NCBI GenBank assembly: GCA_002502095.1
Contig: DAPJ01000005.1
Location: 15,763 to 79,762 of the forward strand
Source of the DNA: Euryarchaeota archaeon UBA62
Lineage (GTDB): Archaea; Thermoplasmatota; Poseidoniia; Poseidoniales; Thalassarchaeaceae
Reading direction: 5' to 3'
DNA: 64,000 nucleotides
Under the pieces are notes generated by a model, which was not told where the DNA came from, ran no database searches, and worked only from the letters and a program-made list of their open reading frames with translations. Below, in pieces: positions 49,363-63,858 of this stretch (the stretch's first letter is position 1; each line of letters starts with the position of its first letter). Made by a program: the position numbers and the translations under genes.

Positions 49363-49830
49363 CTATTTAGAATCGTCAATAGCGGGTTCAATTACCATTA
49401 GAGGAGAATTTGCTTCGATGCTATCTCCTGGTTCACAATTCAACTCAGTAATTTTCCCAGAAATAGGGGCCTGAATTTCATTCTGCATCTTCATGGCTTC
49501 TAATATCATTATGACGTCCCCTTCGGAGACAAGCTCATCCTGTCTCACTGAGATGGAGATAATTTTTCCTGGGATTGATGACGACACTACTCCTGATCTC
49601 TTAGCCTTTCGAGCTCCCTTCTTTTTCCTGGGAGAGGGTGACCCGCGTTTACTGCCATCTACTTTGATAGAGAATACTCTACCTTCTACTTCGACCTTCC
49701 AAAAATCTCCTTCTTTCTCCATAGAGACTTCAAAATCTTCTCCATCGACATTTACTTTTCTTTTGTCGTTCATTAGATCACCTGGAAGAACTCCTCTTCG
49801 ATTTAGCTCTGAACAGATTCCTTCTGCCAA
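49363..49830 (-). CDS. Biotin carboxyl carrier protein (biotinyl domain subunit of acyl-CoA carboxylase / methylmalonyl-CoA decarboxylase)
   Basis: Biotinyl-lysine motif ILEAMKMQNEI inside a lipoyl/biotinyl-type hammerhead (GDVIMILEAMKM...GKITEL). The start may be the internal Met near 49773. Confidence 0.8.
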   Translation of the reverse strand: MAEGICSELNRRGVLPGDLMNDKRKVNVDGEDFEVSMEKEGDFWKVEVEGRVFSIKVDGSKRGSPSPRKKKGARKAKRSGVVSSSIPGKIISISVRQDELVSEGDVIMILEAMKMQNEIQAPISGKITELNCEPGDSIEANSPLMVIEPAIDDSK

Positions 49831-49981
49831 TAATTACTCTTCGATGGTCTCTAGCCCACTCCTTTCCCCTGTTTCTCTGTGAAGAGGGTTGGATAAAATC
49901 TCCTCCCTCCTCTTCTAGAATAACAGCAACCATCGCTACTACTTTTAATTTAAGCAATCTACTATCGTCCAAAAAAACACC

Positions 49982-51535
49982 TCAAAGCGGAATATTACCA
50001 TGTTTTCTAGCTGGCCTAACCTCTTCCTTTTCAAGCAGCGCACCGAGTGCTTTGACCATGACGATCCTCGTCTCACTTGGTTGAATTACATCATCAAGAT
50101 ATCCAAGAGAGGCAGCACGATATGGGTTTGCAAAAGTATCTTCATAGTCATCTACTAGTCTCTCCCTCTCCTGTTCAGGGTTTCCAGAAGAGGCGATCCT
50201 CCTTCTATGAATAATTTGTACCGCTCCCTCTGCTCCCATAACTGCCAGCTGTGCAGAGGGCCACGCAACGTTGTAATCTCCCCTGATGTGTTTGGACGAC
50301 ATTACATCGTAAGCGCCCCCATATGCCTTCCTGGTAATCACAGTCAATTTAGGGACCGTCGCTTCGGCATATGCATAAAGTAACTTAGCGCCATGTCTGA
50401 TTATCCCTCCCCACTCTTGGCTAGCACCTGGAAGAAAACCAGGAACATCTACAAAGGTTAGAAGAGGAATATTGAATGAATCACAAAATCTTACGAATCT
50501 AGCCGCCTTAATGGATGCATCAATATCCAAGCACCCGGCAAGAAAATTAGGCTGATTAGCAACCACTCCAATAGTATGTCCTCCTAGTCTGGCAAATCCG
50601 ACTACTATATTCATTGCATATTCTGACTGAACCTCTAAGAATGCCCCATCATCTACTGTTTCTTCTATTGCCACAATGATATCATACGGCTCTTTGGGGT
50701 TATCTGGAACTAAACTTTGCAACCTGTCACAGGCCCTATCTATCGGATCCATAGTAGGTAAAACGGGAGCTTTCTGTAGATTATTCGATGGCAACATACT
50801 AATGAGCTCCCTTGTCAACTCTAAGGCCTCTTCATCGTCATCTGCAGTAAAGTGAGTCACACCAGACTTTCTAGCATGAGTCGAAGCCCCTCCCAAGTCC
50901 TCAAAGGAAACCTCTTCGTTAGTTACTGTCTTGATTACTTCCGGTCCGGTGATGAACATATGGGAGGTCCCATCCACCATAATTACAAAATCAGTAATCG
51001 CTGGAGAGTAGACTGCTCCTCCTGCACAGGGTCCCATGATGACTGAAATTTGTGGTATGACTCCACTTGCTCTGACGTTCCTGAAGAATATTTCCGCATA
51101 AGAACCAAGACTAGCTACGCCCTCCTGTATCCTTGCACCCCCGCTGTCATTTAGTCCAATGACAGGAGATCCAGTTTTGAGGGCCATGTCAAGAATCTTG
51201 CAAATCTTCAGGCCATGCATCTCCCCGAGGGAGCCACCGTATACTGTGAAATCCTGAGCAAAGCAGTACACTGTCTTCCCTCCTATGGTGCCATGCCCAC
51301 ACACCACACCGTCCCCAGGGATTACATTCCTATCCATATCAAAGTCTCTGCATCTATGCTCTACCAACGGATCCACCTCCATGAAAGATCCATCATCTAA
51401 GAGTAGATCTAACCGCTCTCGTGCCGTTAATTTTCCCTTGGAGTGCTGTGCTGATACTCTCGCCTGACCGCCTCCTGCTATGGCTTGTGCCTTACGCCTC
51501 CGAAGCTCTTCAACGCGTACGTCATCTGCACTCAT
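49982..51535 (-). CDS. pccB: Acyl-CoA carboxylase carboxyltransferase subunit (propionyl-CoA carboxylase beta / methylmalonyl-CoA decarboxylase alpha family)
   Basis: [22 protein letters not shown]-terminus. [16 protein letters not shown] motif. 517 aa. Confidence 0.85.
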
Positions 51536-51638
51536 GTACCTCCATATGTTGGGACGTCAATATGTCTTACTAATGAAAACGTGAAAATATGGCCTGCGGT
51601 TGCTTCAAGGAGGGTCACCGGTTCGCCTATTCGATACT

Positions 51639-52076
51639 ATGAAGATAGTAATGGCCAAACCGGGCCTTGACGGCCATGATCGAGGTGCAAAAGTAATAGC
51701 CAGATCACTTAGAGATGGAGGTCATGAAGTCGTGTATACTGGCCTTAGGAGGACTCCTGAGGAGATTTCAAGAATTGTAATGGATGAAGACGCAAATGCT
51801 CTTGGACTCTCTACATTATCAGGAGCTCATGACGTTTTAGTGCCACGAATTTGTGAACTTCTCAGGGAGACAGGAATGGGCAATGTAATGGTTTTCCTGG
51901 GAGGGATAATACCCGATAGAGATCATGAAAGTATGTTCTCCAGTGGCGTGAGGGCAATATTTGGACCGGGATCAAGAACAGATGAAATCCTATCTTTCTT
52001 AGATGAGGCTAATTCAAGAGTGGAGTCAGGTGCCCCCATTGGAGTCGGTGATGAAGATGGGTGGCGTTGGAATTGA
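51639..52076 (+). CDS. Methylmalonyl-CoA mutase small subunit, the B12-binding domain
   Basis: MKIVMAKPGLDGHDRGAKVIARSLRDGGHEVVY contains the DxHxxG cobalamin-binding motif. About 145 aa. The track ORF starts at 51600; the internal Met is preferred. Confidence 0.85.
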   Translation: MKIVMAKPGLDGHDRGAKVIARSLRDGGHEVVYTGLRRTPEEISRIVMDEDANALGLSTLSGAHDVLVPRICELLRETGMGNVMVFLGGIIPDRDHESMFSSGVRAIFGPGSRTDEILSFLDEANSRVESGAPIGVGDEDGWRWN

Positions 52077-52948
52077 TTGATCAAGACTCCCTCCTAAAAT
52101 CAGCAGCCGATGGTAACAGGAGGGACTTGTCAAGATTGCTAACTTACCTAGAAAAGGGTATAAAGCTCAATTTTCCTGAAAATACCCCTCCAAGGAAATC
52201 ATCGGTTATGGGAATAACCGGTCCTCCAGGAGTCGGAAAATCATCTCTAATAGGGAGAATAATCAGTTATTGGAATTCTAGAAATCAGAACGTAGCTGTT
52301 CTGGCTATTGACCCCTCGTCTCCAAGGTCAGGTGGGGCACTGTTGGGGGATCGAGTAAGGATGGACTCAGCTGACTCAGGAGAGTTGGTTTACGTGAGAT
52401 CTCTTTCTACTGGGGGCCAGCCAGGTGGAATGTCATCATCGTTGATTTCAATGATTGAATTACTGTCCTACTGTGGATGGGAAAATATTGTGATAGAAAC
52501 CGTTGGATCGGGCCAGTCGGAAATTAAAATAGTTGCATTCGCAGATAAAATAATTTTAGTTGATGGCCCAGATAGAGGCGACATAATTCAAGCCGAGAAA
52601 GCAGGCATTATCGAGTTAGCAGATATTATTGTGATTAACAAATCAGACCTTCCGGGGGCTATCAAAGCTGCCGAATCAATACGTTCTTCTCTCTCATTTG
52701 CCGACGGAAAGAAATCCCCGGATGTTGTCCTCGTCTCTGCACAGATGAACGAGGGAATAGATGAAATGATGGAGTTAGTGCAAAACTGTGATTCTCCGGA
52801 TTGGAGAGAGAAGATAAAAATACAAGAAAGATTGATCTCACTGTGGGATTCTCGTCTACTATCGTCTCCCAATTTGAATCGGGTCATAAACGAATTACAA
52901 ACCGGAAGTATTTCACTTGATGATGCTCTGGACGATTTAGCTAGGTGA
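52061..52948 (+). CDS. meaB: MeaB/ArgK-type GTPase (methylmalonyl-CoA mutase-associated G-protein chaperone)
   Basis: P-loop GITGPPGVGKSSLIGRI. NKSD (NKxD) motif in VINKSDL. Overlaps the preceding B12-domain gene by 16 nt. Confidence 0.85.
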   Translation: MALELIDQDSLLKSAADGNRRDLSRLLTYLEKGIKLNFPENTPPRKSSVMGITGPPGVGKSSLIGRIISYWNSRNQNVAVLAIDPSSPRSGGALLGDRVRMDSADSGELVYVRSLSTGGQPGGMSSSLISMIELLSYCGWENIVIETVGSGQSEIKIVAFADKIILVDGPDRGDIIQAEKAGIIELADIIVINKSDLPGAIKAAESIRSSLSFADGKKSPDVVLVSAQMNEGIDEMMELVQNCDSPDWREKIKIQERLISLWDSRLLSSPNLNRVINELQTGSISLDDALDDLAR

Positions 52949-53709: not shown

Positions 53710-54021
53710 TCACTTGCATCTCTGGCCATATTCATCATTTATTTCTGAGTGCTTGAATCCCTCCTCTTCGAGCATTCGGAGTTTTCCCTCTGCCCCTCCT
53801 AGGCCAGAGTAACCACCGACTCTTCCATCCGAACGAATCACTCTATGGCATGGAACAAAGGGAGCATACGGATTTGCTGCACATGCATTGGCAACTGCTC
53901 TCGATGAGCCAGGTTTCCCAATAGCATCAGCAATCTGCTTGTACGTCCTAGTTTCTCCAAGGGGGATAGAAAGCAACTCCCTCCATACTAGTTTCTGGAA
54001 GGAAGTTCCATTCATTTTCAC
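53710..54021 (-). CDS. ogt: Methylated-DNA-protein-cysteine methyltransferase (Ogt/MGMT), a stand-alone C-terminal catalytic domain
   Basis: Active-site PCHRVIRSDGRVGGYSGLGG with the catalytic Cys. Only 103 aa, so it lacks the usual N-terminal domain. Confidence 0.85.
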   Translation of the reverse strand: MKMNGTSFQKLVWRELLSIPLGETRTYKQIADAIGKPGSSRAVANACAANPYAPFVPCHRVIRSDGRVGGYSGLGGAEGKLRMLEEEGFKHSEINDEYGQRCK

Positions 54022-54305
54022 GGCTCTTCCTCTTCCAATCCGGATGGACGATATCCCTCATCCATTCCCACTATCTCGTAATTTGAGGGAAAAAGGGCTA
54101 TTGCCACACCTCCGATCATACACCCAAGGCCAAGTAAGAACTGCCCAGTTATCATCATTTCAAGAGCTATGGCAACTAAGATTAAACCTCCGATATTGGA
54201 TACCCAAACCAAGTTTTTGAATGTCGATAATGATACTCCTGTGGTCCTCTCTGTCCTCTTGGGACCAAATTCTGCACCGAATCTAATTGGGTCTTCATCA
54301 CTCAA
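54018..54305 (-). CDS. Small two-TM membrane protein
   Basis: 95 aa. Hydrophobic segments LILVAIALEMMITGQFLLGLGCMIGGVAIALF. The 4-nt ATGA overlap with ogt suggests co-translation. Confidence 0.45.
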   Translation of the reverse strand: MSDEDPIRFGAEFGPKRTERTTGVSLSTFKNLVWVSNIGGLILVAIALEMMITGQFLLGLGCMIGGVAIALFPSNYEIVGMDEGYRPSGLEEEEP

Positions 54306-54309
54306 AATA

Positions 54310-54642
54310 TCACCTGTCTATCATTAGTATTGCATCTGTTGGGCAAGCAAGAACGCATAACTGGCACCCAGTACAAGGGTCTCTCAGAATCTTCGCTTTC
54401 CTGTTTACCTCGATATTTAGGATGGGACTGGCAAGCGGAGTATCATACAGCTCTATGGCATCATCATCACAAACAATCGTACATTGATCGCACCCGATGC
54501 ACTGCTCTTCCTTGACCCACGCGACAGCATCTTCTCCTCCCTTCAATTTAGCCTGATCTTCAGACCTTCTAGCATCTAGAAGAATCTTAATTCTCCGTTG
54601 CTCAGATTTTCTCCGTGCTATCAGATCTTTGATGTCCGTCAC
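54310..54642 (-). CDS. 2x[4Fe-4S] ferredoxin
   Basis: Two cluster motifs: CIGCDQCTIVCDDDAI and CTGCQLCVLACPTDAI. Confidence 0.85.
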   Translation of the reverse strand: MTDIKDLIARRKSEQRRIKILLDARRSEDQAKLKGGEDAVAWVKEEQCIGCDQCTIVCDDDAIELYDTPLASPILNIEVNRKAKILRDPCTGCQLCVLACPTDAILMIDR

Positions 54643-54721
54643 AAAAAACCCTCCATGCTCCTTCTTCTCAATGCTACGGTCTAAACATCACTAATTTAAC
54701 CATGTTTCGTTAGCAAGTAAC

Positions 54722-54985
54722 ATGGAAGCCTATGAGGGACCCTGGATATACGATCCTATGTGTTGGATTGGCTTGACACAGGGCATATTGATTTGGGTGT
54801 TGATGACAATGTATATTTCTCCTCAGATAGCATGGATTTCATTTGCTTGTGGAGGACTAATTGGCTTCTTCATTTGGCTTACTGCACTCGGCTATCGCCG
54901 AATACAAGTTGCGAAATTCACTTTGTATGGCATAGCAATAAATGCATTATTGGCTGTATTTTCAGGTTGGTTAGCTTTCGGTTAG
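54722..54985 (+). CDS. Possible small membrane protein (uncertain)
   Basis: 87-aa ORF with 2-3 hydrophobic helices. It lies in a 346-nt gap between minus-strand genes. It could instead be a non-coding leader or intergenic region. Confidence 0.3.
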   Translation: MEAYEGPWIYDPMCWIGLTQGILIWVLMTMYISPQIAWISFACGGLIGFFIWLTALGYRRIQVAKFTLYGIAINALLAVFSGWLAFG

Positions 54986-54988
54986 AGC

Positions 54989-57772
54989 TCACTGACTCTT
55001 CCCTGCCTCAACCTGCCTGGCTAGGAAGCTAACGACATCCAATATTTCGAAGTCATGTCTTGGGTCCCCTTCGAACTTTAGGCACTCGAAATGGGAGACA
55101 CACTTTGGACAGGATGTCAGCATGATGTCAGCCCCAGTTGCGTTTACCTCTTCGAATCTCTGGACTCTCAAAGCTCTACTATTCTCATTACAGCTCATCA
55201 TACTGGAAACACCACAGCAAAGTGCATCTTCGCCATGATGCTCCATCTCTACTAGGTTAACTCCTTCTACGTTGGATATGAGGTCCCTTGGCTGGTCATA
55301 GATATTCATCTGCCTCCCTAGTCTGCATGGGTCATGGAAAGTGACCGTAACATCGTCATCCGATTGTAGATTCATGTCAAAACCATTCTCTACCAGGAAT
55401 TCAGTGGTATGCATCACCTTCATGTCCTCCAACTCATAGTCCAGGGCGAATGTTCTGAAGCACTCGGCGCAAGATGTCACTAGGGTGTCAATCCCACTCT
55501 CTCCTAGTTTCTTCTGATTGTACGCCTTGAGCTTCTCAAAGACTTCTGTCATTCCTTGCCATTTCTGATCATGGCCACAGCACTTCAAGAAATCCCTACC
55601 AAGGTAAGTGACATCTTCACCCATCTCTTCGAATAGCGTGAATGCGGAAGTTGTAGCATCTCCTAGATTCATGGAACCTTCGTTGACGTGACTGAAAATC
55701 ATTTCTTGATCCAGGTAGTCGACACATCCTGGGTAGTATCCGATGTTCGAATCAATTGGATACTCATCAATCGACATGAAGTATCCGTCAGCATCCTCCT
55801 CTGCTTCAGCAGCTAGGACCGCCTGTAATACAGTATGAGGAATTTCAGTAGCAGGAGGGCCGCCGACTATCATATTCCTCCTGATGTCAACATATGAATC
55901 ATAATCCACTAGTTGGGGACAGGCATTGGTACAAGCAGAGCACGTCAGACATGAATACAAAGGAACCCCGTCGTCCTCATTGTTCCAAGTATTGTAGATG
56001 ATGTTCAGCTTATCTCCAGAGTTGAATAGCCTCACTGGACAAGCGTCATCACAAAGATCGCAGCCGTAGCACTTGTTCATCTCGTATTCGTATCCTCTCG
56101 CCATGCTCCTCATGAGCATGAATACCAAAGCACCGACTCCCAGACAAGGTATGAATAACGAATATATCAATTTCGCATCAAGACTCTTCGGATTCTTGTG
56201 ATACGTTGGATTCTTCAAGTACATTGCCGACATGGTCTCTAGATCCAGAGTCGACTCTGACCTGACTAGTGAAGTGCCATCATCATTCAACAGTAGGGGC
56301 TGGTATGCTACCACAGACAAGCTCGTGATTACCTCTACAGACTCGTTGATTCCTTGCGATGTGGTCATGTAAGAAACACTGTAAGTATTCCCCGCATCTA
56401 GGTATATGGTTTCCGAAACACACCCTTCCGTACTCCAAATTTCATCTCCTGACGAGTCACTTAGAACCAAACTCTGAGAATGGACACCTGCTCCTCTGAC
56501 TGTAGTCCTGAATAGACATCCAATATCCGCTGGAACTTCGGAAACTCCCAGGTCTTCTACTTCGAATGTCATACTTACTTCGTATGTAATCTCAGATCCA
56601 TCTGCAGTCCCGGGGAAAGATGTTTCATCCTCGGCCGAATTTCTACCTGTGGCACTGTCGGCATGTCCATTATCACCTGCAAAGTCAATTATCTTGAATT
56701 TCGTAGGTTGGAAAATACCCCAATTAGACCAATGCGTCGCGGCAATGACACACCAATCAGAGGGATCTTCTTCTGATGACAATCCATTCCATGCAGCCAG
56801 TGTTGAGCTTTCCTCATAAGGTATGCATTCGTCTTCCCAGTCAGCCCAAACATTCCCTTCCTCTACGTGTACAAGGGTGTCAGAAGGCTGTGCCCTGAGG
56901 GAATCCAAGTCTTCGACATCGTCCATGGCACCGAGCCCACCATAGTCCCAGAAACCATTCTCATACACAGGCCATGTGACAACAGATATGAGTACAGCGG
57001 CAATTAGAGATCCTACAGCAACCTGACGACCAATCCTTGGGGTAACTCTGGAACCTACTGAGCTAAGCAGGAATTTCCTGGTAGGGAAATATATGACTGC
57101 GAATAAGAAAATTCCAGTAAGTATCCACGGAACCGCATTGAAAACCTCAGCAGTCCAGGGGGCTTGTCTTCCACACATTAGTTCAGAATGAGAACCAGTA
57201 AAGCAATAGTCACTACGATCTTTGGCATACAAGTCTAGGAATATATTGATCGAGAAAACCGATATGAACCAGACATGGGCTAAATAAACAGCTCCCGCAG
57301 TTGCAAACCATGGATCTTCAACCCCTCTCTTTTCTCTACCGGGTAGGAAGGGGGGAAGTGCGAGAATACCAACAGGAAGTCCTGTAATTGCGGCTCCCCA
57401 CCAAGCAGCGTTCCAATCGATAACAGGAGTTCCGAAGAACTCTCCGATAGGGCCTGCTGGAATCACAAATTGAGGAAGATACTCGCCCCATCTTAGGTAT
57501 CCGTATGAAAACAGAACGTACCAATCGGGGAATACGAAACCAGCTTGCGCGAATGGATCAGCCGCACTATGCAGTGGGGGAGGTATCAGCCAAGAGTAGA
57601 ATGCTATGGTCATGACAATCGAGGCAAAAATTATCGTATCTCGAAGTACTTCAGTAGGCCAGAAAGGATGTCCAGTAAACGTCCTCCTCCTCTCGGTATC
57701 AGCTTCCAAAAGCTTGTTTCTCTCGCTGATGTATGTATCAGCAATTCTACCAAATCTATCCATCATCCCCAT
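54989..57772 (-). CDS. Fusion protein: cytochrome b6f subunit IV (PetD)-like quinol-site domain, large acidic ectodomain, one TM, and a cytoplasmic HdrD/GlpC-like module (2x[4Fe-4S] plus 2 CCG domains)
   Basis: N-terminus YGEPAWP-like HPFWPTEVLRDTIIFASIVMTIAFYSWLIPPPLHSAADPFAQAGFVFPDWYVLF has the PEWY-equivalent PDWY. C-terminal CYGCDLCDDACP and CLTCSACTNACP ferredoxin motifs. Two CCG motifs LKCCGHDQ...DPCRLG and ALCCGVSS. Confidence 0.8.
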   Translation of the reverse strand: MGMMDRFGRIADTYISERNKLLEADTERRRTFTGHPFWPTEVLRDTIIFASIVMTIAFYSWLIPPPLHSAADPFAQAGFVFPDWYVLFSYGYLRWGEYLPQFVIPAGPIGEFFGTPVIDWNAAWWGAAITGLPVGILALPPFLPGREKRGVEDPWFATAGAVYLAHVWFISVFSINIFLDLYAKDRSDYCFTGSHSELMCGRQAPWTAEVFNAVPWILTGIFLFAVIYFPTRKFLLSSVGSRVTPRIGRQVAVGSLIAAVLISVVTWPVYENGFWDYGGLGAMDDVEDLDSLRAQPSDTLVHVEEGNVWADWEDECIPYEESSTLAAWNGLSSEEDPSDWCVIAATHWSNWGIFQPTKFKIIDFAGDNGHADSATGRNSAEDETSFPGTADGSEITYEVSMTFEVEDLGVSEVPADIGCLFRTTVRGAGVHSQSLVLSDSSGDEIWSTEGCVSETIYLDAGNTYSVSYMTTSQGINESVEVITSLSVVAYQPLLLNDDGTSLVRSESTLDLETMSAMYLKNPTYHKNPKSLDAKLIYSLFIPCLGVGALVFMLMRSMARGYEYEMNKCYGCDLCDDACPVRLFNSGDKLNIIYNTWNNEDDGVPLYSCLTCSACTNACPQLVDYDSYVDIRRNMIVGGPPATEIPHTVLQAVLAAEAEEDADGYFMSIDEYPIDSNIGYYPGCVDYLDQEMIFSHVNEGSMNLGDATTSAFTLFEEMGEDVTYLGRDFLKCCGHDQKWQGMTEVFEKLKAYNQKKLGESGIDTLVTSCAECFRTFALDYELEDMKVMHTTEFLVENGFDMNLQSDDDVTVTFHDPCRLGRQMNIYDQPRDLISNVEGVNLVEMEHHGEDALCCGVSSMMSCNENSRALRVQRFEEVNATGADIMLTSCPKCVSHFECLKFEGDPRHDFEILDVVSFLARQVEAGKSQ

Positions 57773-57782
57773 TTATCACACC

Positions 57783-58649
57783 TCAATGTGGCTCCGCTAT
57801 ACCTTGTGCCCAAACAATGAACAAATGTGCAAGAATGAGCGAAGTAACTACTACTGGAAGTATGAAGACATGAAGGAAGTACATTCTGGTAACCGTCTGT
57901 CCTGAGATTGTAGTACCGGCGAACATAGCGGTTGCAACCCAACCTCCAATCAGAGGGGTACTATTTGCCATGTTGATTCCAATAGTTGCAGCACCGAATG
58001 CTAGGCTATCCCATGGGAGGAGGTATCCTGAATAGCCAAAGAAAATTGTGAAGAACATCAGTGCGACTCCAATCAACCAGTTTAATTCCCTAGGATTCCT
58101 GTAAGCACCGGTGAAGTAGACCCTACACATGTGCAGGAATACAGCAGCGACCATGAAGTGCGTAGTCCAGTGATGTATGGATCTGATGATGTATCCGAAA
58201 GGAAGTTGTGTCATTATGAATTCCATGCTACTATACGCAGGAGTTGGATCTCCCTCTCCACCCGGTACGTAGTATAGTCCTAGAACAGTACCTGTCAGAA
58301 CTAGGATTACGAATGCCAAGAAGGAAATCCCACCTAGGCAGTATAGGGGATACCAATACCAAATTATTCTGAGCTTGTATTTCTCAGCATGAGTCATGGG
58401 CATTTGCCTGTGCATGCCGTAGTACGCATCCCTGCTCATCCCCCAGTAGTCCTGAATTCTGAATCTTGTATCTAGCCACGAGAATGCCCACAGGAATGAC
58501 TTTTCTGCTAGACCCATGCTACTAGCACTAGTCTCGACCGCTCGCAGTATTTCTTTCCTCGGCATCTCCTCTCTTTCTTTCCTCAGTGTTAGAGCTACTA
58601 TTACTACAACTAAGGTTATGAAGACCCATAGAAACCAGAATTGAATCAT
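57783..58649 (-). CDS. petB: Cytochrome b6-type cytochrome b (N-terminal 4-helix haem domain)
   Basis: SIHHWTTHFMVAAVFLHMCRVYFTGAYR...PRELNWLIGV...GYLLPWD. Haem His pairs spaced 14 (helix B) and 15 (helix D) as in b6. Confidence 0.85.
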   Translation of the reverse strand: MIQFWFLWVFITLVVVIVALTLRKEREEMPRKEILRAVETSASSMGLAEKSFLWAFSWLDTRFRIQDYWGMSRDAYYGMHRQMPMTHAEKYKLRIIWYWYPLYCLGGISFLAFVILVLTGTVLGLYYVPGGEGDPTPAYSSMEFIMTQLPFGYIIRSIHHWTTHFMVAAVFLHMCRVYFTGAYRNPRELNWLIGVALMFFTIFFGYSGYLLPWDSLAFGAATIGINMANSTPLIGGWVATAMFAGTTISGQTVTRMYFLHVFILPVVVTSLILAHLFIVWAQGIAEPH

Positions 58650-58658
58650 TTTCTCACC

Positions 58659-59513
58659 TCAGTCGCAATATGTGTACCAGTCTTTGAAATCAGGCAGAGC
58701 CTCTATCAAATCTCCGTTAAGAACGAATGGAATCAATGGCATCCCCATTGGTGCCGGACCTCCGGCCCTCTTAATCCCAATGAAATCAAATTCAGCACCA
58801 CTTGATCTATTTCTGGCCCTATTCTTCTCTATGACAGTAGGGTCGAACCTAGACGAGTGACAGATACAGAACAGCTTACTTCCCCCAGAGTCAGTTCCAC
58901 TTGGAACCCACTGGTCTTCGGTAAATTCGTTAGTAACCAGTTGCCACCCCGGGATGCAACAAAGGTGCGTACACCTTGAAAATATTAGTATCAGGTTGTC
59001 ATGTATGGAAAGAGACTGATATTGGGGATCTTCATCTAGCTCGTATCCAGAGCCAACATATGAGCCATCTGCCGTGTATCCATCCATAAATTGAAATCGA
59101 GGCTTATCCTCAATGAGGGCACTACCCTTATTCTCTTCATGAGGTACATACACTGCATTTACTGGCATTCCCGACCATACTCCCTGGGCTGCTGACATCC
59201 CCGTGGCGGAACTGGCGGCCGCATCGACGAACGATTGGTATGTCATGGGCTCCAAGTGCCTATCTCCGTACCATACACTATCCTCTGCCCCCGTCGGTAC
59301 CCAGTATCTCACAGCAGTGTCTCCTCCATCTGCTTCTGCCTGCCCCATTAGTAAGGATGCGAACCCAACACTCCCAATGCTGGCAACGGTAATGGCACCA
59401 GCGGCGGTATTGAACGAGTGCCTCATGAACTCGCGCCTGTCTATCAGGTGCCCCTCTCCGGACGAATCCTCCGAGCTTGAAGAACTATCTCTGAGCGTGA
59501 ATTTTCTTGCCAT
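58659..59513 (-). CDS. petA: Rieske [2Fe-2S] iron-sulfur protein with a twin-arginine (Tat) signal
   Basis: Tat motif DRREFMRHSFNTAAGA. Rieske box I CTHLCCIPGW and box II LFCICHSSRFD. Confidence 0.85.
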   Translation of the reverse strand: MARKFTLRDSSSSSEDSSGEGHLIDRREFMRHSFNTAAGAITVASIGSVGFASLLMGQAEADGGDTAVRYWVPTGAEDSVWYGDRHLEPMTYQSFVDAAASSATGMSAAQGVWSGMPVNAVYVPHEENKGSALIEDKPRFQFMDGYTADGSYVGSGYELDEDPQYQSLSIHDNLILIFSRCTHLCCIPGWQLVTNEFTEDQWVPSGTDSGGSKLFCICHSSRFDPTVIEKNRARNRSSGAEFDFIGIKRAGGPAPMGMPLIPFVLNGDLIEALPDFKDWYTYCD

Positions 59514-59515
59514 AC

Positions 59516-59965
59516 TTACACCTCATATTTCTTCCATGATTCAGGATCTTTCGTAGTGATATACTTGTTTCTCCTGCTCTTCACGATTACTATGTCAGGC
59601 ATTACATACTTCATGTATATCATTCCCAGTATTATTACAGTAAGCAATAACATCCCTAAGAAGAAAGACAACATCTGTTGATCCCATTTATTGTAAAGCC
59701 CATATGAAAGTGAACCAGCCCAGTAAAGTGACCAAACTATTCCCCAAAGGCCTACTAAAATTATTAGCCATGAATCTCCAGAAGGAGAGACGCTGGCTCT
59801 AACAATAGACCCTGCAGGGGCCTCATTGAAAACCCCGTGTTCAATCGCAGTCTCATAAGCCTCCTCTGTGAGAGATATTCCATCAAGGGCCTCCCTGGCG
59901 TCTTCCACGCTCACCTCTCCCGATGCTACCTGCCTGAGCATCTTCATTACTACGTCATCCCTCAT
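59516..59965 (-). CDS. Small membrane protein: about 60-aa soluble N-terminus plus 2 TM, co-transcribed with the Rieske/cyt b genes
   Basis: 149 aa. Hydrophobic helices WLIILVGLWGIVWSLYWAG and FFLGMLLLTVIILGMIYM. 2-nt gap to the Rieske gene. Confidence 0.5.
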   Translation of the reverse strand: MRDDVVMKMLRQVASGEVSVEDAREALDGISLTEEAYETAIEHGVFNEAPAGSIVRASVSPSGDSWLIILVGLWGIVWSLYWAGSLSYGLYNKWDQQMLSFFLGMLLLTVIILGMIYMKYVMPDIVIVKSRRNKYITTKDPESWKKYEV

Positions 59966-60783
59966 TACTGATCACCCCTTCTCTGGTGCTTAATCCTCAG
60001 TCTCAGAAGATTACTCCTGCCCTCATAATGTCTTGAGAATCCATACCTCAACATCAATCCACAAAAGATAATCACGATAACAACAGCGGCGAAGCCGAGC
60101 AGCCCTAGCCAATGCGCCCTCATACCAGCTCCCATGTGGTGTAGGTCCACCCCTTCTTCCACAGGTGCCGGTGGCTCTATGTCACCATTTCCTACGAATA
60201 CAGTCCTCGTCCCTCCAAATTCACCTTCATCTATAGACGCACTTAGCCTGTTCCACCTGTCCAGTTGCGAGGGAATCCCGTCTCCATTAACCGAGTTCCC
60301 AGCCAACCAAATCGTAACAACACCAGTACCTTCTTCTGGAGCAGTCCATGTGATATGCCAAGTTCTGTCAGAAACCTTCGATCCAGAATTGCTGTGAGTG
60401 AGTGTAGAAAGATCGTCTTCCCAGTTGTACATCAAGGACTCAAATCCAGCCGAGGCGGTGAGGGTACCTTCGCTAACCCTCATGGAAAATCCACCGGTAT
60501 GGGAAGTCGTATCTGCCACAGGACCCCCAATGATTTGAATTGACATTTCATAGGAATCTCCTGGTTGGTAACGATGGGGGACATCGGTCAATATTAGAGT
60601 GACAGAATTATCCGGCTCCTCGGCGTGACATGTGCATCCTGCAAGCGCCACATCTCCCTCATTATTCGCATCGCCACCTATGCCTGTGGGATTGGCCTGT
60701 GACCCACCAGCCGTCAGCACAGCGACAATAGTGATAGCCAGTACCTTCCTTACGGTGAGCACACTCGACGCCATCCACAACAC
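59965..60783 (-). CDS. Secreted, C-terminally anchored protein encoded by the first gene of the Rieske/cyt b operon (putative redox partner, unknown cofactor)
   Basis: Signal peptide VRKVLAITIVAVLTAGGSQA. About 200-aa ectodomain with GCTCH and a His/Met-rich HHMGAGMRAHW segment. TM WLGLLGFAAVVIVIIFCGLML plus basic tail. Confidence 0.5.
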   Translation of the reverse strand: MLWMASSVLTVRKVLAITIVAVLTAGGSQANPTGIGGDANNEGDVALAGCTCHAEEPDNSVTLILTDVPHRYQPGDSYEMSIQIIGGPVADTTSHTGGFSMRVSEGTLTASAGFESLMYNWEDDLSTLTHSNSGSKVSDRTWHITWTAPEEGTGVVTIWLAGNSVNGDGIPSQLDRWNRLSASIDEGEFGGTRTVFVGNGDIEPPAPVEEGVDLHHMGAGMRAHWLGLLGFAAVVIVIIFCGLMLRYGFSRHYEGRSNLLRLRIKHQRRGDQ

Positions 60784-62499: not shown

Positions 62500-63858
62500 T
62501 TAGGGATAATTCCATTCCATCTTTTGAGCATCCGAAACCAAGACTTCACTGCCATCGACTTCTATGCACAAGAATCCATCATTGTCTAGTCCAATAATCC
62601 TGACCCTTTCATTCTCAATCTCAGCTACTACGCCTCTAGAAAGACTGGATGACAATGCCTTCCAGCTAGAAATTTCCAGCGACCTTTGATCAAGATCTGG
62701 TACCATTTCGAGTCTTTCAAGAATTCCAGAGACCCCACTGTCCACCATACTGAACACTTCTTCTAGGGAAACGTCGCCAATGGTATCGCTCCACCCAAGG
62801 CAAGGAATTCCATTAACCACCCTTGGTGATGAATTAATTCCAATCCCTATCCTAAAGCCAGGATTAGAACTATTCGCTTCAATCATTATCCCCCCTATTT
62901 TCTCCCCACGGATGGAGATCAGGTCATTGGGCCACTTCAGTTCACAACTTAGTGACTTCGAAACCGCGGCGCCAATCCCTATCTGTAGCATTCCAGGGGT
63001 GGAAATCTCGGTTGGCTCTCTGTTGATTTTCCACGATGCCAGTAAATCTCCAGGAATAGACTCCCATTTTGATCCTCTTCTCCCTCTGCCAGAAAGCTGG
63101 TCTCCTACAATCAGTCTCTGCCACCCCTCGTCCGGCAAATGAATCACTCCATCCATTGCAGAATCACATATTTCCTCTCTCTTTTCCTTTGACCCTGAAC
63201 CAGTCCTCCACATAGCAAAGACCTCCAATCTCTCATCGCCAATCCTCTTCATTTCCAATGATCTGCAAGACCACCCAGACATTAACCAGACAGAAGGGCT
63301 ACTGGGACTAATTGGGTCCGTTCTAAATAGAAGAACGACCGTCAAATCATCATTGTTCCTAACTTTCAGACTTTTCAATAACTCTTCTGACCAGCCACCA
63401 TCTCCCAAATCAGTCAGTGACGCCTCCTCGATAGGCTCCAATACCGGCCCATTAGGGTCTGGGGGATTGAGATATGGTAGATTCCATACAATCAACTTAG
63501 TTCCATCTGGTATGCCCCATCCATCCTCGCCAACCCCACCTTCTCTAACTATTACATTTCTCTCAAATCCATTTCTTTCTATGTTAGCTCTAGAACAGGC
63601 TACAGCATATGGATTGACATCATATGATAAAACACTCCAGCCGAGAGCAGAAAGTGCCATGGAGACCACGCCCGTGCCACATCCTATCTCTATTGCATTC
63701 GATGCATTCCCCTCCAGTCTTGAAATCGCCCTGCAGAGCAATTCAGTGTCCTCACGAGGAGGATAAACTGTCGGAGCCACATCAATTTCCCAAGGGCCGA
63801 AGTTTTCCATTTCAAATATCATCCTCTTCATATAAATCATCACCCGCTCAGTTCTCAA
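62500..63858 (-). CDS. Fusion protein: Mtq2/HemK-like class-I SAM methyltransferase (N-terminal) plus biotin-[acyl-CoA-carboxylase] ligase BirA catalytic and C-terminal domains
   Basis: N-terminus VYPPREDTELL...IEIGCGTGVVSMALSALG...YDVNPYAV...IVWNLPYLNPP (SAM motif I plus NPPY-like motif). C-terminus QLSGRGRRGSKWESIPGDLLASW (BirA GRGRRGR-W-SP-G-L signature) plus an SH3-like tail. Confidence 0.75.
   Translation of the reverse strand: MRTERVMIYMKRMIFEMENFGPWEIDVAPTVYPPREDTELLCRAISRLEGNASNAIEIGCGTGVVSMALSALGWSVLSYDVNPYAVACSRANIERNGFERNVIVREGGVGEDGWGIPDGTKLIVWNLPYLNPPDPNGPVLEPIEEASLTDLGDGGWSEELLKSLKVRNNDDLTVVLLFRTDPISPSSPSVWLMSGWSCRSLEMKRIGDERLEVFAMWRTGSGSKEKREEICDSAMDGVIHLPDEGWQRLIVGDQLSGRGRRGSKWESIPGDLLASWKINREPTEISTPGMLQIGIGAAVSKSLSCELKWPNDLISIRGEKIGGIMIEANSSNPGFRIGIGINSSPRVVNGIPCLGWSDTIGDVSLEEVFSMVDSGVSGILERLEMVPDLDQRSLEISSWKALSSSLSRGVVAEIENERVRIIGLDNDGFLCIEVDGSEVLVSDAQKMEWNYP

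Follow-up and report, generated by a model that had tools for sequence, protein, structure and literature searches.

The usual view of Rieske/cytochrome b complexes is that of closed Q-cycle machines, with periplasmic carriers as the only recipients of their electrons. The subject of this report is a gene cluster of a marine archaeon in which such a complex is joined covalently to an iron-sulfur (Fe-S) module of the heterodisulfide reductase type. The cluster occupies positions 54310-60783, on the minus strand, of a 64,000-nucleotide (nt) stretch of contig DAPJ01000005.1, hereafter the window, from Euryarchaeota archaeon UBA62, a member of Marine Group IIb (MGIIb; Thalassarchaeaceae, Poseidoniales). 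Its central product is a protein of 927 amino acids (aa), in which subunit IV of the complex continues into an HdrD-like part with motifs for two cubane [4Fe-4S] clusters and two CCG-type clusters. The feature is real and strongly conserved, and it represents an unusual variant of complex III in globally abundant archaea.

Among the described systems closest to this protein, some share its membrane scaffold and others its Fe-S module. On the side of the scaffold stand the cytochrome b6f complexes and the PetB/PetD/PetC complexes of Firmicutes and Heliobacteria, which have a split cytochrome b of four helices with a histidine spacing of 14/15 and the CxGG cysteine for heme cn, a separate subunit IV with a P[D/E]WY motif at the Qo site, and a Rieske protein of the twin-arginine translocation (Tat) type. 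On the side of the module stand HdrDE, DsrMK, HmeCD, and TmcBC, in which a cytoplasmic 2x[4Fe-4S] plus CCG module sits on a membrane heme-b protein and communicates with the quinone or phenazine pool. In addition, EtfD of mycobacteria and EMO of Syntrophus combine, in a single polypeptide, an N-terminal transmembrane (TM) part with two cubane and two CCG-type sites. In EtfD, two CCG-type and two cubane clusters lead in steps of 7-9 Å to a membrane heme b and menaquinone (PMC13083937), and the same cluster wire to heme b and menaquinone was reported for the Syntrophus EMO (EMO preprint).

Regarding archaea, the study of Diamond et al. (2022, PMC9038741) reports hdrD-like and rnfB-like genes adjoining complex III in Angelarchaeales and proposes, in one sentence, that electrons enter there from ferredoxin, while an MGII-specific complex III and an orphan RnfB were noted in Marine Group II (MGII) by Tully (2019, PMC6336850). 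Bacterial cytochromes b fused to 4Fe-4S and MvhD domains form the "PDWF-FeS" clade, which has no Rieske partner (Kao & Hunte 2014, PMC4122944). A search of open-access full text found no description of a covalent fusion of subunit IV with HdrD, of an ectodomain insertion in it, or of the wider clade described below. An earlier note on this DNA knew of no description of the arrangement; this stands for the covalent fusion and does not extend to hdrD-like and rnfB-like genes beside complex III, already on record for Angelarchaeales.

The fusion protein and its operon

Six co-directional open reading frames (ORFs) lie on the minus strand within 54310-60783, with intergenic gaps of -1, 2, 9, 10, and 346 nt. 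Domain searches, profiles, and coordinates agree in identifying a cluster of Rieske/b6 type in which an HdrD-like 2x[4Fe-4S]+2xCCG region is attached to subunit IV. The earlier note was therefore correct in substance, and the ORFs that it named are present on the minus strand at the coordinates that it gave, apart from its count of seven genes and its gaps of 2 nt or less, which are in fact -1, 2, 9, and 10 nt.

The fusion protein (927 aa; 54989-57772, minus strand) consists of four parts. Residues 1-240 (57053-57772) resemble subunit IV; they contain TM helices E-H and, at 82-85, PDWY as the Qo motif. Residues 241-557 (56102-57052) form an insertion made of TM helix I, an acidic ectodomain of 265 aa, and a return TM helix J. 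The earlier note, while recognizing subunit IV and the Fe-S part, overlooked two extra TM helices that lie between them, as well as the ectodomain and the return helix. Residues 558-640 (55853-56101) are a 2x[4Fe-4S] ferredoxin-type domain (Fer4_9/8/10), and residues 641-927 (54989-55852) an HdrD/HdrB-like domain for non-cubane clusters, matched by the CCG family PF02754 at 4.7e-23 in two stretches, so that both the Fer4 and the CCG domains anticipated by the note were found. Hydropathy places the TM segments of the whole protein at about 42-63, 122-140, 157-179, 210-232, 251-269, and 535-553.

The membrane part was assigned with orthologue profiles, which were also needed for the Rieske protein because single-sequence Pfam searches missed both. 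With phmmer, the subunit IV part reached b6f subunit IV at 0.002; a profile built from 12 sequences matched residues 230-362 of bc1 cytochrome b, in its C-terminal half, at 6e-13, PetD (subunit IV of b6f) at 2e-9, and also actinobacterial QcrB over four helices. The threshold of PF00032 is reached by shorter relatives and not by the fusion of the window. The PDWY motif is present in 19/19 relatives examined, and this motif has been associated with menaquinol and low-potential Rieske proteins (Kao & Hunte 2014, PMC4122944).

The fusion N-terminus and the F-G, H-I, and post-J loops, on the predicted n side, are enriched in lysine and arginine (K+R). By such positive-inside counts, the N-terminus is cytoplasmic, as is the Fe-S module, and the PDWY loop faces the outside together with the ectodomain. 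A cytoplasmic Fe-S module is also supported by the number of TM helices preceding Fer4, as estimated with a crude hydropathy window, which is even in 13/19 relatives. The ectodomain is very acidic (K+R 11, aspartate plus glutamate 48), and in the AlphaFold 2 model it contains an all-beta sandwich at aa ~370-500 with a predicted local distance difference test score (pLDDT) of about 90 and weak fold matches to GOLD domains. The insertion is present in the long Poseidoniales forms (~920-940 aa). To judge by their length, forms of ~540-800 aa from other lineages would have no room for it, and in the short forms helix H leads straight into Fer4.

The Fe-S module has the layout of HdrD, in which two CCG motifs (CXnCCXnCXXC) stand behind a pair of [4Fe-4S] motifs of the ferredoxin type. 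Its Fer4 dicluster spans aa 564-620, with CxxCxxCxxxCP occurring twice, at 568 and 608, and the first motif starts 12-15 residues past TM helix J; in 18/19 relatives Fer4 begins ~15-50 residues after the last predicted TM helix. The CCG motifs read C683-x47-CC-x35-CxxC and C816-x35-CC-x34-CxxC. The usual number of residues before the CC pair is 31-39, compared with 47 in the first motif. When 36 fusions with 33-91% identity to the query are aligned, none of the eight Fer4 cysteines varies, nine of the ten CCG cysteines are likewise invariant, and C732 is kept in at least 90%.

The best sequence match of this module in the PDB is EtfD of M. smegmatis (9ojn, 2e-22), which also leads the Foldseek search at 3.8e-13, followed by LutA and HdrB with target-normalised TM-scores of 0.65-0.78. 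Matches to the glutamate/aspartate racemase fold were discarded as probably spurious in view of their low TM-scores and high root-mean-square deviations. Apart from the Hdr-like domain, a Foldseek search with the full 927-aa model gave nothing but generic matches to beta-sandwiches, because its TM part was modelled too poorly for subunit IV to be recognized. Among NCBIfam models the closest is that of the thiol-using TfrB, at 2e-31, with weak matches to DsrK, TmcB, and HmcF. Source records of these proteins say only "Fe-S oxidoreductase" or "heterodisulfide reductase subunit D", so that the operon is not already annotated as the Hme- or Dsr-type complex that the earlier note had considered.

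A search of 5.8 billion proteins returned 481 homologues; the best 120 of the 481 are almost all full-length (926-936 aa), 76-96% identical to the query, and come, where an organism is named, from Thalassarchaeaceae, Poseidoniales, or Thermoplasmatota. In a species-level search with one genome per GTDB species, relatives were found in 224 genomes, and the best 80 of the 224 are all of marine Poseidoniales type, many of them labelled Euryarchaeota, Methanobacteriota, or Thermoplasmatota. The genomes with the fusion include single-cell genomes and a 698-kb long-read contig, and the version of MGIIa (Poseidoniaceae) has 920 aa. Sequence conservation on this scale indicates that the fusion is real and under selection.

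The other subunits agree with this assignment. The Rieske [2Fe-2S] protein (284 aa; 58659-59513, minus strand) is of the Tat type (RREFM) and carries the boxes CTHLCC and CICHSS; C181, H183, C186, C216, C218, and H219 are invariant, and boxes and twin-arginine motif are conserved in orthologues. As a single sequence it has no Pfam match at E<=0.01, PF00355 included, and it matches NCBIfam TIGR01416 at 2e-10, below the cut-off of that model; its orthologue profile retrieves solved bc-type Rieske proteins, with that of Thermus at 8e-13. The b6-type cytochrome b (288 aa; 57783-58649, minus strand) matches PF00033 at 7.5e-42, and its best solved match is cytochrome b6 (1q90_B, 1e-41). Of the Pfam families that the earlier note had proposed as a check, PF00033, Fer4, and PF02754 were thus matched, and PF00355 and PF00032 were not reached by the window proteins, which needed profiles. 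The heme ligands H159/H173 and H260/H275 align with b6 H86/H100/H187/H202 in the b6-type 14/15 spacing, and C104, in a CLGG motif, aligns with b6 Cys35, to which heme cn (also ci) is attached, so that C104 is a predicted heme-cn attachment site. This CxGG motif is kept in 84/86 orthologous cytochromes b. An N-terminal extension of ~100 residues with one extra TM helix (aa 4-22) precedes the four canonical helices. The small membrane protein DUF7318 (149 aa, 2 TM helices; 59516-59965, minus strand; PF24002 at 28.5 bits, cut-off 27) occurs in 76/87 loci, and in the same position in loci of Thermoplasmata, Halobacteria, Geothermarchaeales, and others; it is a conserved accessory subunit of the archaeal Rieske/cytochrome b clade.

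Gene order was compared by tblastn of the window proteins against 87 related loci. The conserved order is gene 1, DUF7318, Rieske, cytochrome b, fusion, ferredoxin, a 95-aa membrane protein, and ogt, with cytochrome b the most conserved protein (82-99%). Because the same order is shared by 80 species-level Poseidoniales loci, the clustering of these genes is far beyond chance.

The ferredoxin (110 aa; 54310-54642, minus strand; 2x[4Fe-4S], Fer4_21 at 9e-13) occurs in 81/87 loci. Its best NCBIfam match is rnfB (TIGR01944, 49 bits, below the cut-off), and for this reason it is probably the orphan RnfB reported for MGII; it is a candidate cytoplasmic partner of the Hdr-like arm. The earlier note had correctly placed it behind a gap of 346 nt, and that gap holds a membrane ORF of 87 aa on the opposite strand (54722-54985, plus strand), convergent with the fusion gene with 3 nt between the stop codons. 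This ORF has no Pfam family, and tblastn finds it in 51/87 loci (32-86% identity), on the opposite strand in 44 of these. In loci without it, ~10-100 nt separate the end of the fusion gene from the ferredoxin, and this distance shrinks to only 4 nt in L087, a locus of MGIIa. The ORF looks like a lineage-specific insertion dividing the operon and, because the ferredoxin closely trails the fusion gene in loci that lack it, the ancestral state is therefore a single operon with the ferredoxin included. By eye, TATA-like boxes lie upstream of the first gene and of the ferredoxin, and the latter, orf95, and ogt are in the window probably driven by their own promoter.

The orf95 gene (95 aa; 54018-54305, minus strand; 1-2 hydrophobic segments) stands directly behind the ferredoxin in 76/87 loci; it has no Pfam or NCBIfam match, and its product is a possible membrane anchor or accessory subunit. 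It is followed by ogt (53710-54021, minus strand), whose 103 aa comprise only the C-terminal domain of an O6-alkylguanine-DNA alkyltransferase, and whose start overlaps the end of orf95 by 4 nt; in the MGIIa locus L087 ogt has 169 aa. Ferredoxin, orf95, and ogt are kept together in most loci. On one flank (49363-52948) lie genes for a biotin carboxyl-carrier protein, a carboxyltransferase, the B12-binding subunit of methylmalonyl-CoA mutase, and MeaB, and on the other (62500-63858) a methyltransferase fused to a biotin-protein ligase-like domain. The respiratory operon thus sits in a neighbourhood of propionyl/methylmalonyl-CoA genes, and does so likewise in the MGIIa locus. The other 50 kb of the window hold housekeeping genes, peptidases, and genes of the methylmalonyl-CoA pathway, and no mcr or coenzyme genes were found in the window.

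Relatives in other archaea and relation to known families

Outside the Poseidoniales, an exhaustive HMMER search with fusion aa 1-560 returned only 147 proteins, mostly fragments, and revealed short fusions. These comprise proteins of 543-789 aa that combine Cytochrom_B_C, Fer4, and 2xCCG, together with variants of 336-458 aa that have Cytochrom_B_C and Fer4 and lack CCG. A second search added dozens more (539-798 aa), with named sources that include "Candidatus Geothermarchaeales" and "Thermoplasmata archaeon". In distant archaea, fusions of subunit IV with Fer4 and CCG (543-798 aa), and likewise the Fer4-only variants, lie in DUF7318-Rieske-cytochrome b operons.

Their loci repeat the arrangement of the window with changing partners. 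In a complete genome labelled "Thermoplasmata archaeon" (L086), DUF7318, Rieske, a Big_5-cytochrome b, and a fusion of 598 aa are followed by a polyferredoxin-FlpD/MvhD gene. A second locus (L083) reads Reeler-domain protein, DUF7318, Rieske, cytochrome b, fusion (789 aa), and polyferredoxin, and both it and L086 have a ferredoxin-like gene behind the fusion. In each of these two, cytochrome b bears a large N-terminal extension with a Big_5 domain, instead of the ectodomain that the Poseidoniales carry in the fusion. In L081/L082 a multiheme cytochrome c, a DUF7318-like protein, Rieske, cytochrome b, and a fusion of 543 aa precede HdrC-, HdrB-, and HdrA-like proteins and FlpD. The Geothermarchaeales locus (L089, 3707-10710) has DUF7318, Rieske, cytochrome b, a fusion of 563 aa, FrhB, an HdrA-like protein of ~1000 aa, and FlpD; further downstream lie a second HdrD-like gene and genes for GcvH (lipoyl carrier-like) and a GlcD-like flavoprotein, which possibly indicate a protein-bound dithiol substrate. 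Finally, a metagenome-assembled genome of Halobacteria (L088) has cytochrome c, DUF7318, Rieske, cytochrome b, and subunit IV-Fer4.

The clade is defined by the gene order DUF7318, Rieske, b6-type cytochrome b, and a PDWY subunit IV fused to a cytoplasmic Fer4 dicluster, with or without CCG, and this order is found in the window, the Poseidoniales loci, the loci L081-L083 from metagenome-assembled genomes, L086, L088, and L089. Throughout the clade a Rieske/b6 core recurs whose subunit IV is extended on the cytoplasmic side by Fe-S domains, along with a low-potential cytoplasmic electron-transfer partner, the last because polyferredoxin, polyferredoxin-FlpD, HdrC-HdrB-HdrA-FlpD, or FrhB-HdrA-FlpD genes trail the fusions. 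The neighbours in L089 and L081/L082 suggest flavin-based bifurcation coupled to a bc-type complex.

Two further observations concern relatives of the module and their surroundings. In Methanoperedens (L084, 8001-17011), a free HdrD-like protein of 336 aa heads an hdrC-hdrB-hdrA-flpD-hdrA-flpD-frhB cluster with no Rieske gene nearby; it shares 47-50% identity with the Hdr region of the fusion in L081 and is likely an unfused relative of the module joined to subunit IV. In MGIIa (L087, 11962-13197), a glutamate-cysteine ligase gene (PF08886, GshA) lies just downstream of the operon on the opposite strand, which hints at a gamma-glutamylcysteine-type thiol in these archaea; the gene is not at this position in the window.

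With these relatives at hand, the complex can be set against the known families. Judged by sequence, it carries four of the five hallmarks of the b6f family, the missing one being the c-type cytochrome: no CxxCH protein of the cytochrome f or c1 kind is encoded in the operon. Unlike b6f-type complexes, it has a fourth helix in subunit IV (as in bc1) and a 690-residue extension with the cytoplasmic Fe-S module; its operon adds DUF7318, a Reeler-like protein, the ferredoxin, and orf95; and its host is an archaeon without photosynthetic reaction centres.

Unlike HdrDE, DsrMK, HmeCD, and TmcBC, whose partner is a NarI/HdrE-type cytochrome b without Rieske protein or Qo site, the MGII module is carried on a bc/b6f scaffold and linked to it covalently through subunit IV, in a host that is neither a methanogen nor a sulfate reducer. 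No HdrE-like gene for a NarI-type di-heme cytochrome b was found in the locus, and because the membrane partner is not of this type, the MGII fusion is not a member of HdrDE/DsrMK/HmeCD. Nor is it a member of EtfD/EMO, because its TM domain, unrelated to theirs and lacking heme ligands, is a homologue of subunit IV and thus of the cytochrome b C-terminal half. It differs from EtfD also in its distal CCG site, which is complete and in EtfD reduced, and no etfAB genes lie in the loci examined.

The Angelarchaeales design is another Thermoplasmatota Rieske/cytochrome b locus with hdrD-like and rnfB-like genes, and L086 shows such a design. It differs in that a fusion to subunit IV is not stated there and that a plastocyanin-like protein serves as the partner on the p side; in Poseidoniales, the ectodomain is inserted and there is only a small ferredoxin. 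The PDWF-FeS clade likewise links a bc-type cytochrome b to cytoplasmic Fe-S/MvhD domains, with no Rieske partner, a different motif, and no CCG domains fused to subunit IV. In anammox bacteria, Rieske/cytochrome b complexes with NAD(P)-oxidoreductase subunits combine a bc-type cytochrome b with flavin modules, and a low-potential output has been proposed for them (PMC12954380); the flavoproteins are separate subunits there, and no CCG domain is fused to subunit IV.

The missing cytochrome draws attention to the first protein of the operon (272 aa; 59965-60783, minus strand), an ectoprotein with a signal peptide, anchored by a C-terminal TM helix. It had no match in the single-sequence Pfam search, and it matches the NCBIfam choice-of-anchor V domain at 1e-27; its AlphaFold model (pLDDT 76) shows a beta-sandwich with a long TM helix behind it, and Foldseek places F-spondin Reeler domains at the top (2e-6). 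It shares the topology of cytochrome f and has an invariant motif G-C50-T-C52-H53, of which the CTCH lies ~20-23 residues past what we take to be the cleavage site of the signal peptide. The corresponding residues of mature cytochrome f are C21-x-x-C24-H25. In other lineages a cytochrome c stands in the first-gene position (L081/L082, L088), and Angelarchaeales have a plastocyanin-like gene upstream of the Rieske gene (Diamond et al. 2022, PMC9038741). The motif, however, is CxCH and not CxxCH, which counts against the lead; a hidden Markov model of the protein found no match in the PDB, and hhalign against a cytochrome f alignment from 15 plastid loci gave a local E of 0.11 and a probability of 0.5%, which is not significant. 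Homology of the first protein with cytochrome f is not claimed here, and the resemblance is a lead rather than a finding.

Proposed electron flow and its alternatives

On balance, we lean towards reading the locus as a complex III, i.e., a menaquinol-oxidising Rieske/b6-type complex with a cytoplasmic Fe-S wire through which the input of electrons is favoured. The architecture is firmly supported and the wire function is probable; electron-transfer contact between the Fe-S chain and the n-side hemes is suggested by analogy. The complex would run a Q-cycle and, in addition, connect the quinone pool to a cytoplasmic redox partner. Because it lies ~12 residues past the last TM helix, the first cubane cluster would be at the n-side membrane surface, where it may exchange electrons with heme bH or heme cn at the Qi pocket. 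Electrons from a low-potential cytoplasmic donor would then pass through the CCG clusters and the two cubane clusters to heme cn/bH, and quinone would be reduced at Qi. Candidate donors are ferredoxin, by way of the 110-aa protein, or else a thiol or flavoprotein that would bind to the CCG domain.

Input is favoured for three reasons. To our knowledge, every characterised relative of the Fer4+CCG module on a membrane heme b links a cytoplasmic couple with the quinone or phenazine pool. The neighbours HdrA, FrhB, and MvhD, in the systems where they are known, supply electrons to Hdr-type clusters. Finally, Diamond et al. made the same suggestion for Angelarchaeales. The route parallels those of EtfD/EMO and HdrDE and the long-postulated path from ferredoxin to heme cn in b6f, where heme cn has been proposed to accept electrons from ferredoxin (PMC5600118).

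Several points weigh on the other side. The direction of the electrons is not fixed by the sequence, and input is the weakest step of the proposal. Both CCG motifs are complete, as in HdrB/HdrD, whereas the first motif of EtfD lacks one cysteine of the CC pair, and complete motifs lean towards genuine thiol/disulfide chemistry over a simple relay. The single-chain model of the fusion is only moderately confident (pLDDT 70, predicted TM-score 0.40). The window encodes no donor enzyme, and the ferredoxin is here probably a separate transcription unit, because the conserved opposite-strand ORF of 87 aa fills the gap of 346 nt.

Some of these points feed the most serious alternative, in which electrons leave through the arm: bifurcation at Qo would send one electron to the Rieske protein and oxygen, and the low-potential electron would travel by bL/bH and the Fe-S wire to a CCG-bound disulfide or to the 110-aa ferredoxin. 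We regard this as unlikely, if worth keeping in view. The CCG motifs are not only complete but conserved as in the catalytic HdrB/HdrD, while the distal site is degenerate or variable in ETF-dependent enzymes, as the EMO authors point out for its cluster (preprint); the closest NCBIfam model is that of a thiol-using enzyme, TfrB (2e-31); a glutamate-cysteine ligase gene lies near the MGIIa operon; and NAD(P)H output has been proposed for the anammox complexes (PMC12954380). Against these stand the lack of any disulfide substrate or thiol pathway tied to the operon across the lineages examined, the pairing of the module in related loci with HdrA/FrhB/MvhD, known deliverers of electrons to Hdr-type clusters, and the existence of Fer4-only variants without a CCG domain. 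An aerobic heterotroph oxidising 2-oxoacids is, moreover, expected to have a surplus of reduced ferredoxin and not a deficit, which counts against output as well. The Poseidoniales host has been described as an aerobic heterotroph (Tully 2019, PMC6336850).

The closest solved structure would instead point to an electron-transferring flavoprotein (ETF) from fatty-acid or amino-acid beta-oxidation, docking on the CCG domain as in EtfD and EMO and delivering electrons to quinone at Qi. Among solved structures, M. smegmatis EtfD leads in both sequence (2e-22) and fold (3.8e-13), both EtfD and EMO are membrane heme-b proteins that feed electrons from ETF into the same Fer4+CCG module, and according to published accounts MGII degrade proteins and fatty acids and have acyl-CoA dehydrogenases (Tully 2019, PMC6336850). 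This origin of the electrons is nevertheless distinctly improbable: no etfAB genes occur within about 8 kb in any locus examined, the conserved neighbours are instead of ferredoxin, MvhD, or HdrA type, EtfD has a membrane part of other descent, and the distal CCG site, reduced in EtfD, is complete here.

The Hdr-like arm could also lie outside the path of the b-heme electrons, with subunit IV serving merely as its anchor; the arm would then act as an enzyme in its own right, sense the redox state, or have a role in assembly or regulation. The long linker and the ectodomain between the two parts in Poseidoniales would allow this, as would the fact that contact between hemes and clusters is deduced. 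It is very improbable all the same, given that Fer4 begins ~15-50 residues after the last TM helix in 18/19 relatives, that the fusion arose or persisted in several distant lineages and always in Rieske/cytochrome b operons, that 17/18 cluster-binding cysteines are invariant (C732 at least 90%), and that solved relatives use the same module as a wire to a membrane heme. An artefact, i.e., a frameshift or misassembly joining a petD-like and an hdrD-like gene, which the earlier note had raised, can be dismissed as next to impossible: the fusion recurs at full length (917-942 aa) in hundreds of assemblies made independently of one another, from both MGIIa and MGIIb, shorter fusions occur in other lineages, and nothing was found in favour of an artefact.

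The reading with a cytoplasmic wire and favoured input is therefore the one retained here. A bolder combination, in which bifurcation at Qo, pulled by oxygen, would push the second electron out through the Hdr-like arm to a disulfide or ferredoxin, and in which the first subunit would be a cytochrome f-like redox protein, is rather doubtful as a whole.

Meaning for Marine Group II and for Rieske/cytochrome b complexes

If the wire operates as proposed, a Rieske/cytochrome b complex can have a port for electrons on its n side, where heme bH/cn and the Qi site lie. Such a port is the unproven core of the route for cyclic flow from ferredoxin to b6f, and also of the low-potential outputs proposed for the anammox bc complexes, and the MGII complex would be a tractable system in which to test it. 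The wider clade ties bc-type complexes to HdrA, MvhD, and FrhB, which suggests quinone-coupled, flavin-based bifurcation on a Rieske/cytochrome b scaffold.

If the combined proposal were true, bifurcation would give a group that ranks among the most abundant archaea of the surface ocean an aerobic supply of low-potential reductant, driven by quinol, and a cytochrome f-like first subunit would make the complex the closest non-photosynthetic relative of b6f. Regarding MGII genomics, the locus would explain two loose ends, namely the "MGII-specific complex III" and the orphan "RnfB", and it would affect how respiration and the turnover of ferredoxin and thiols are modelled in a globally abundant group of plankton.

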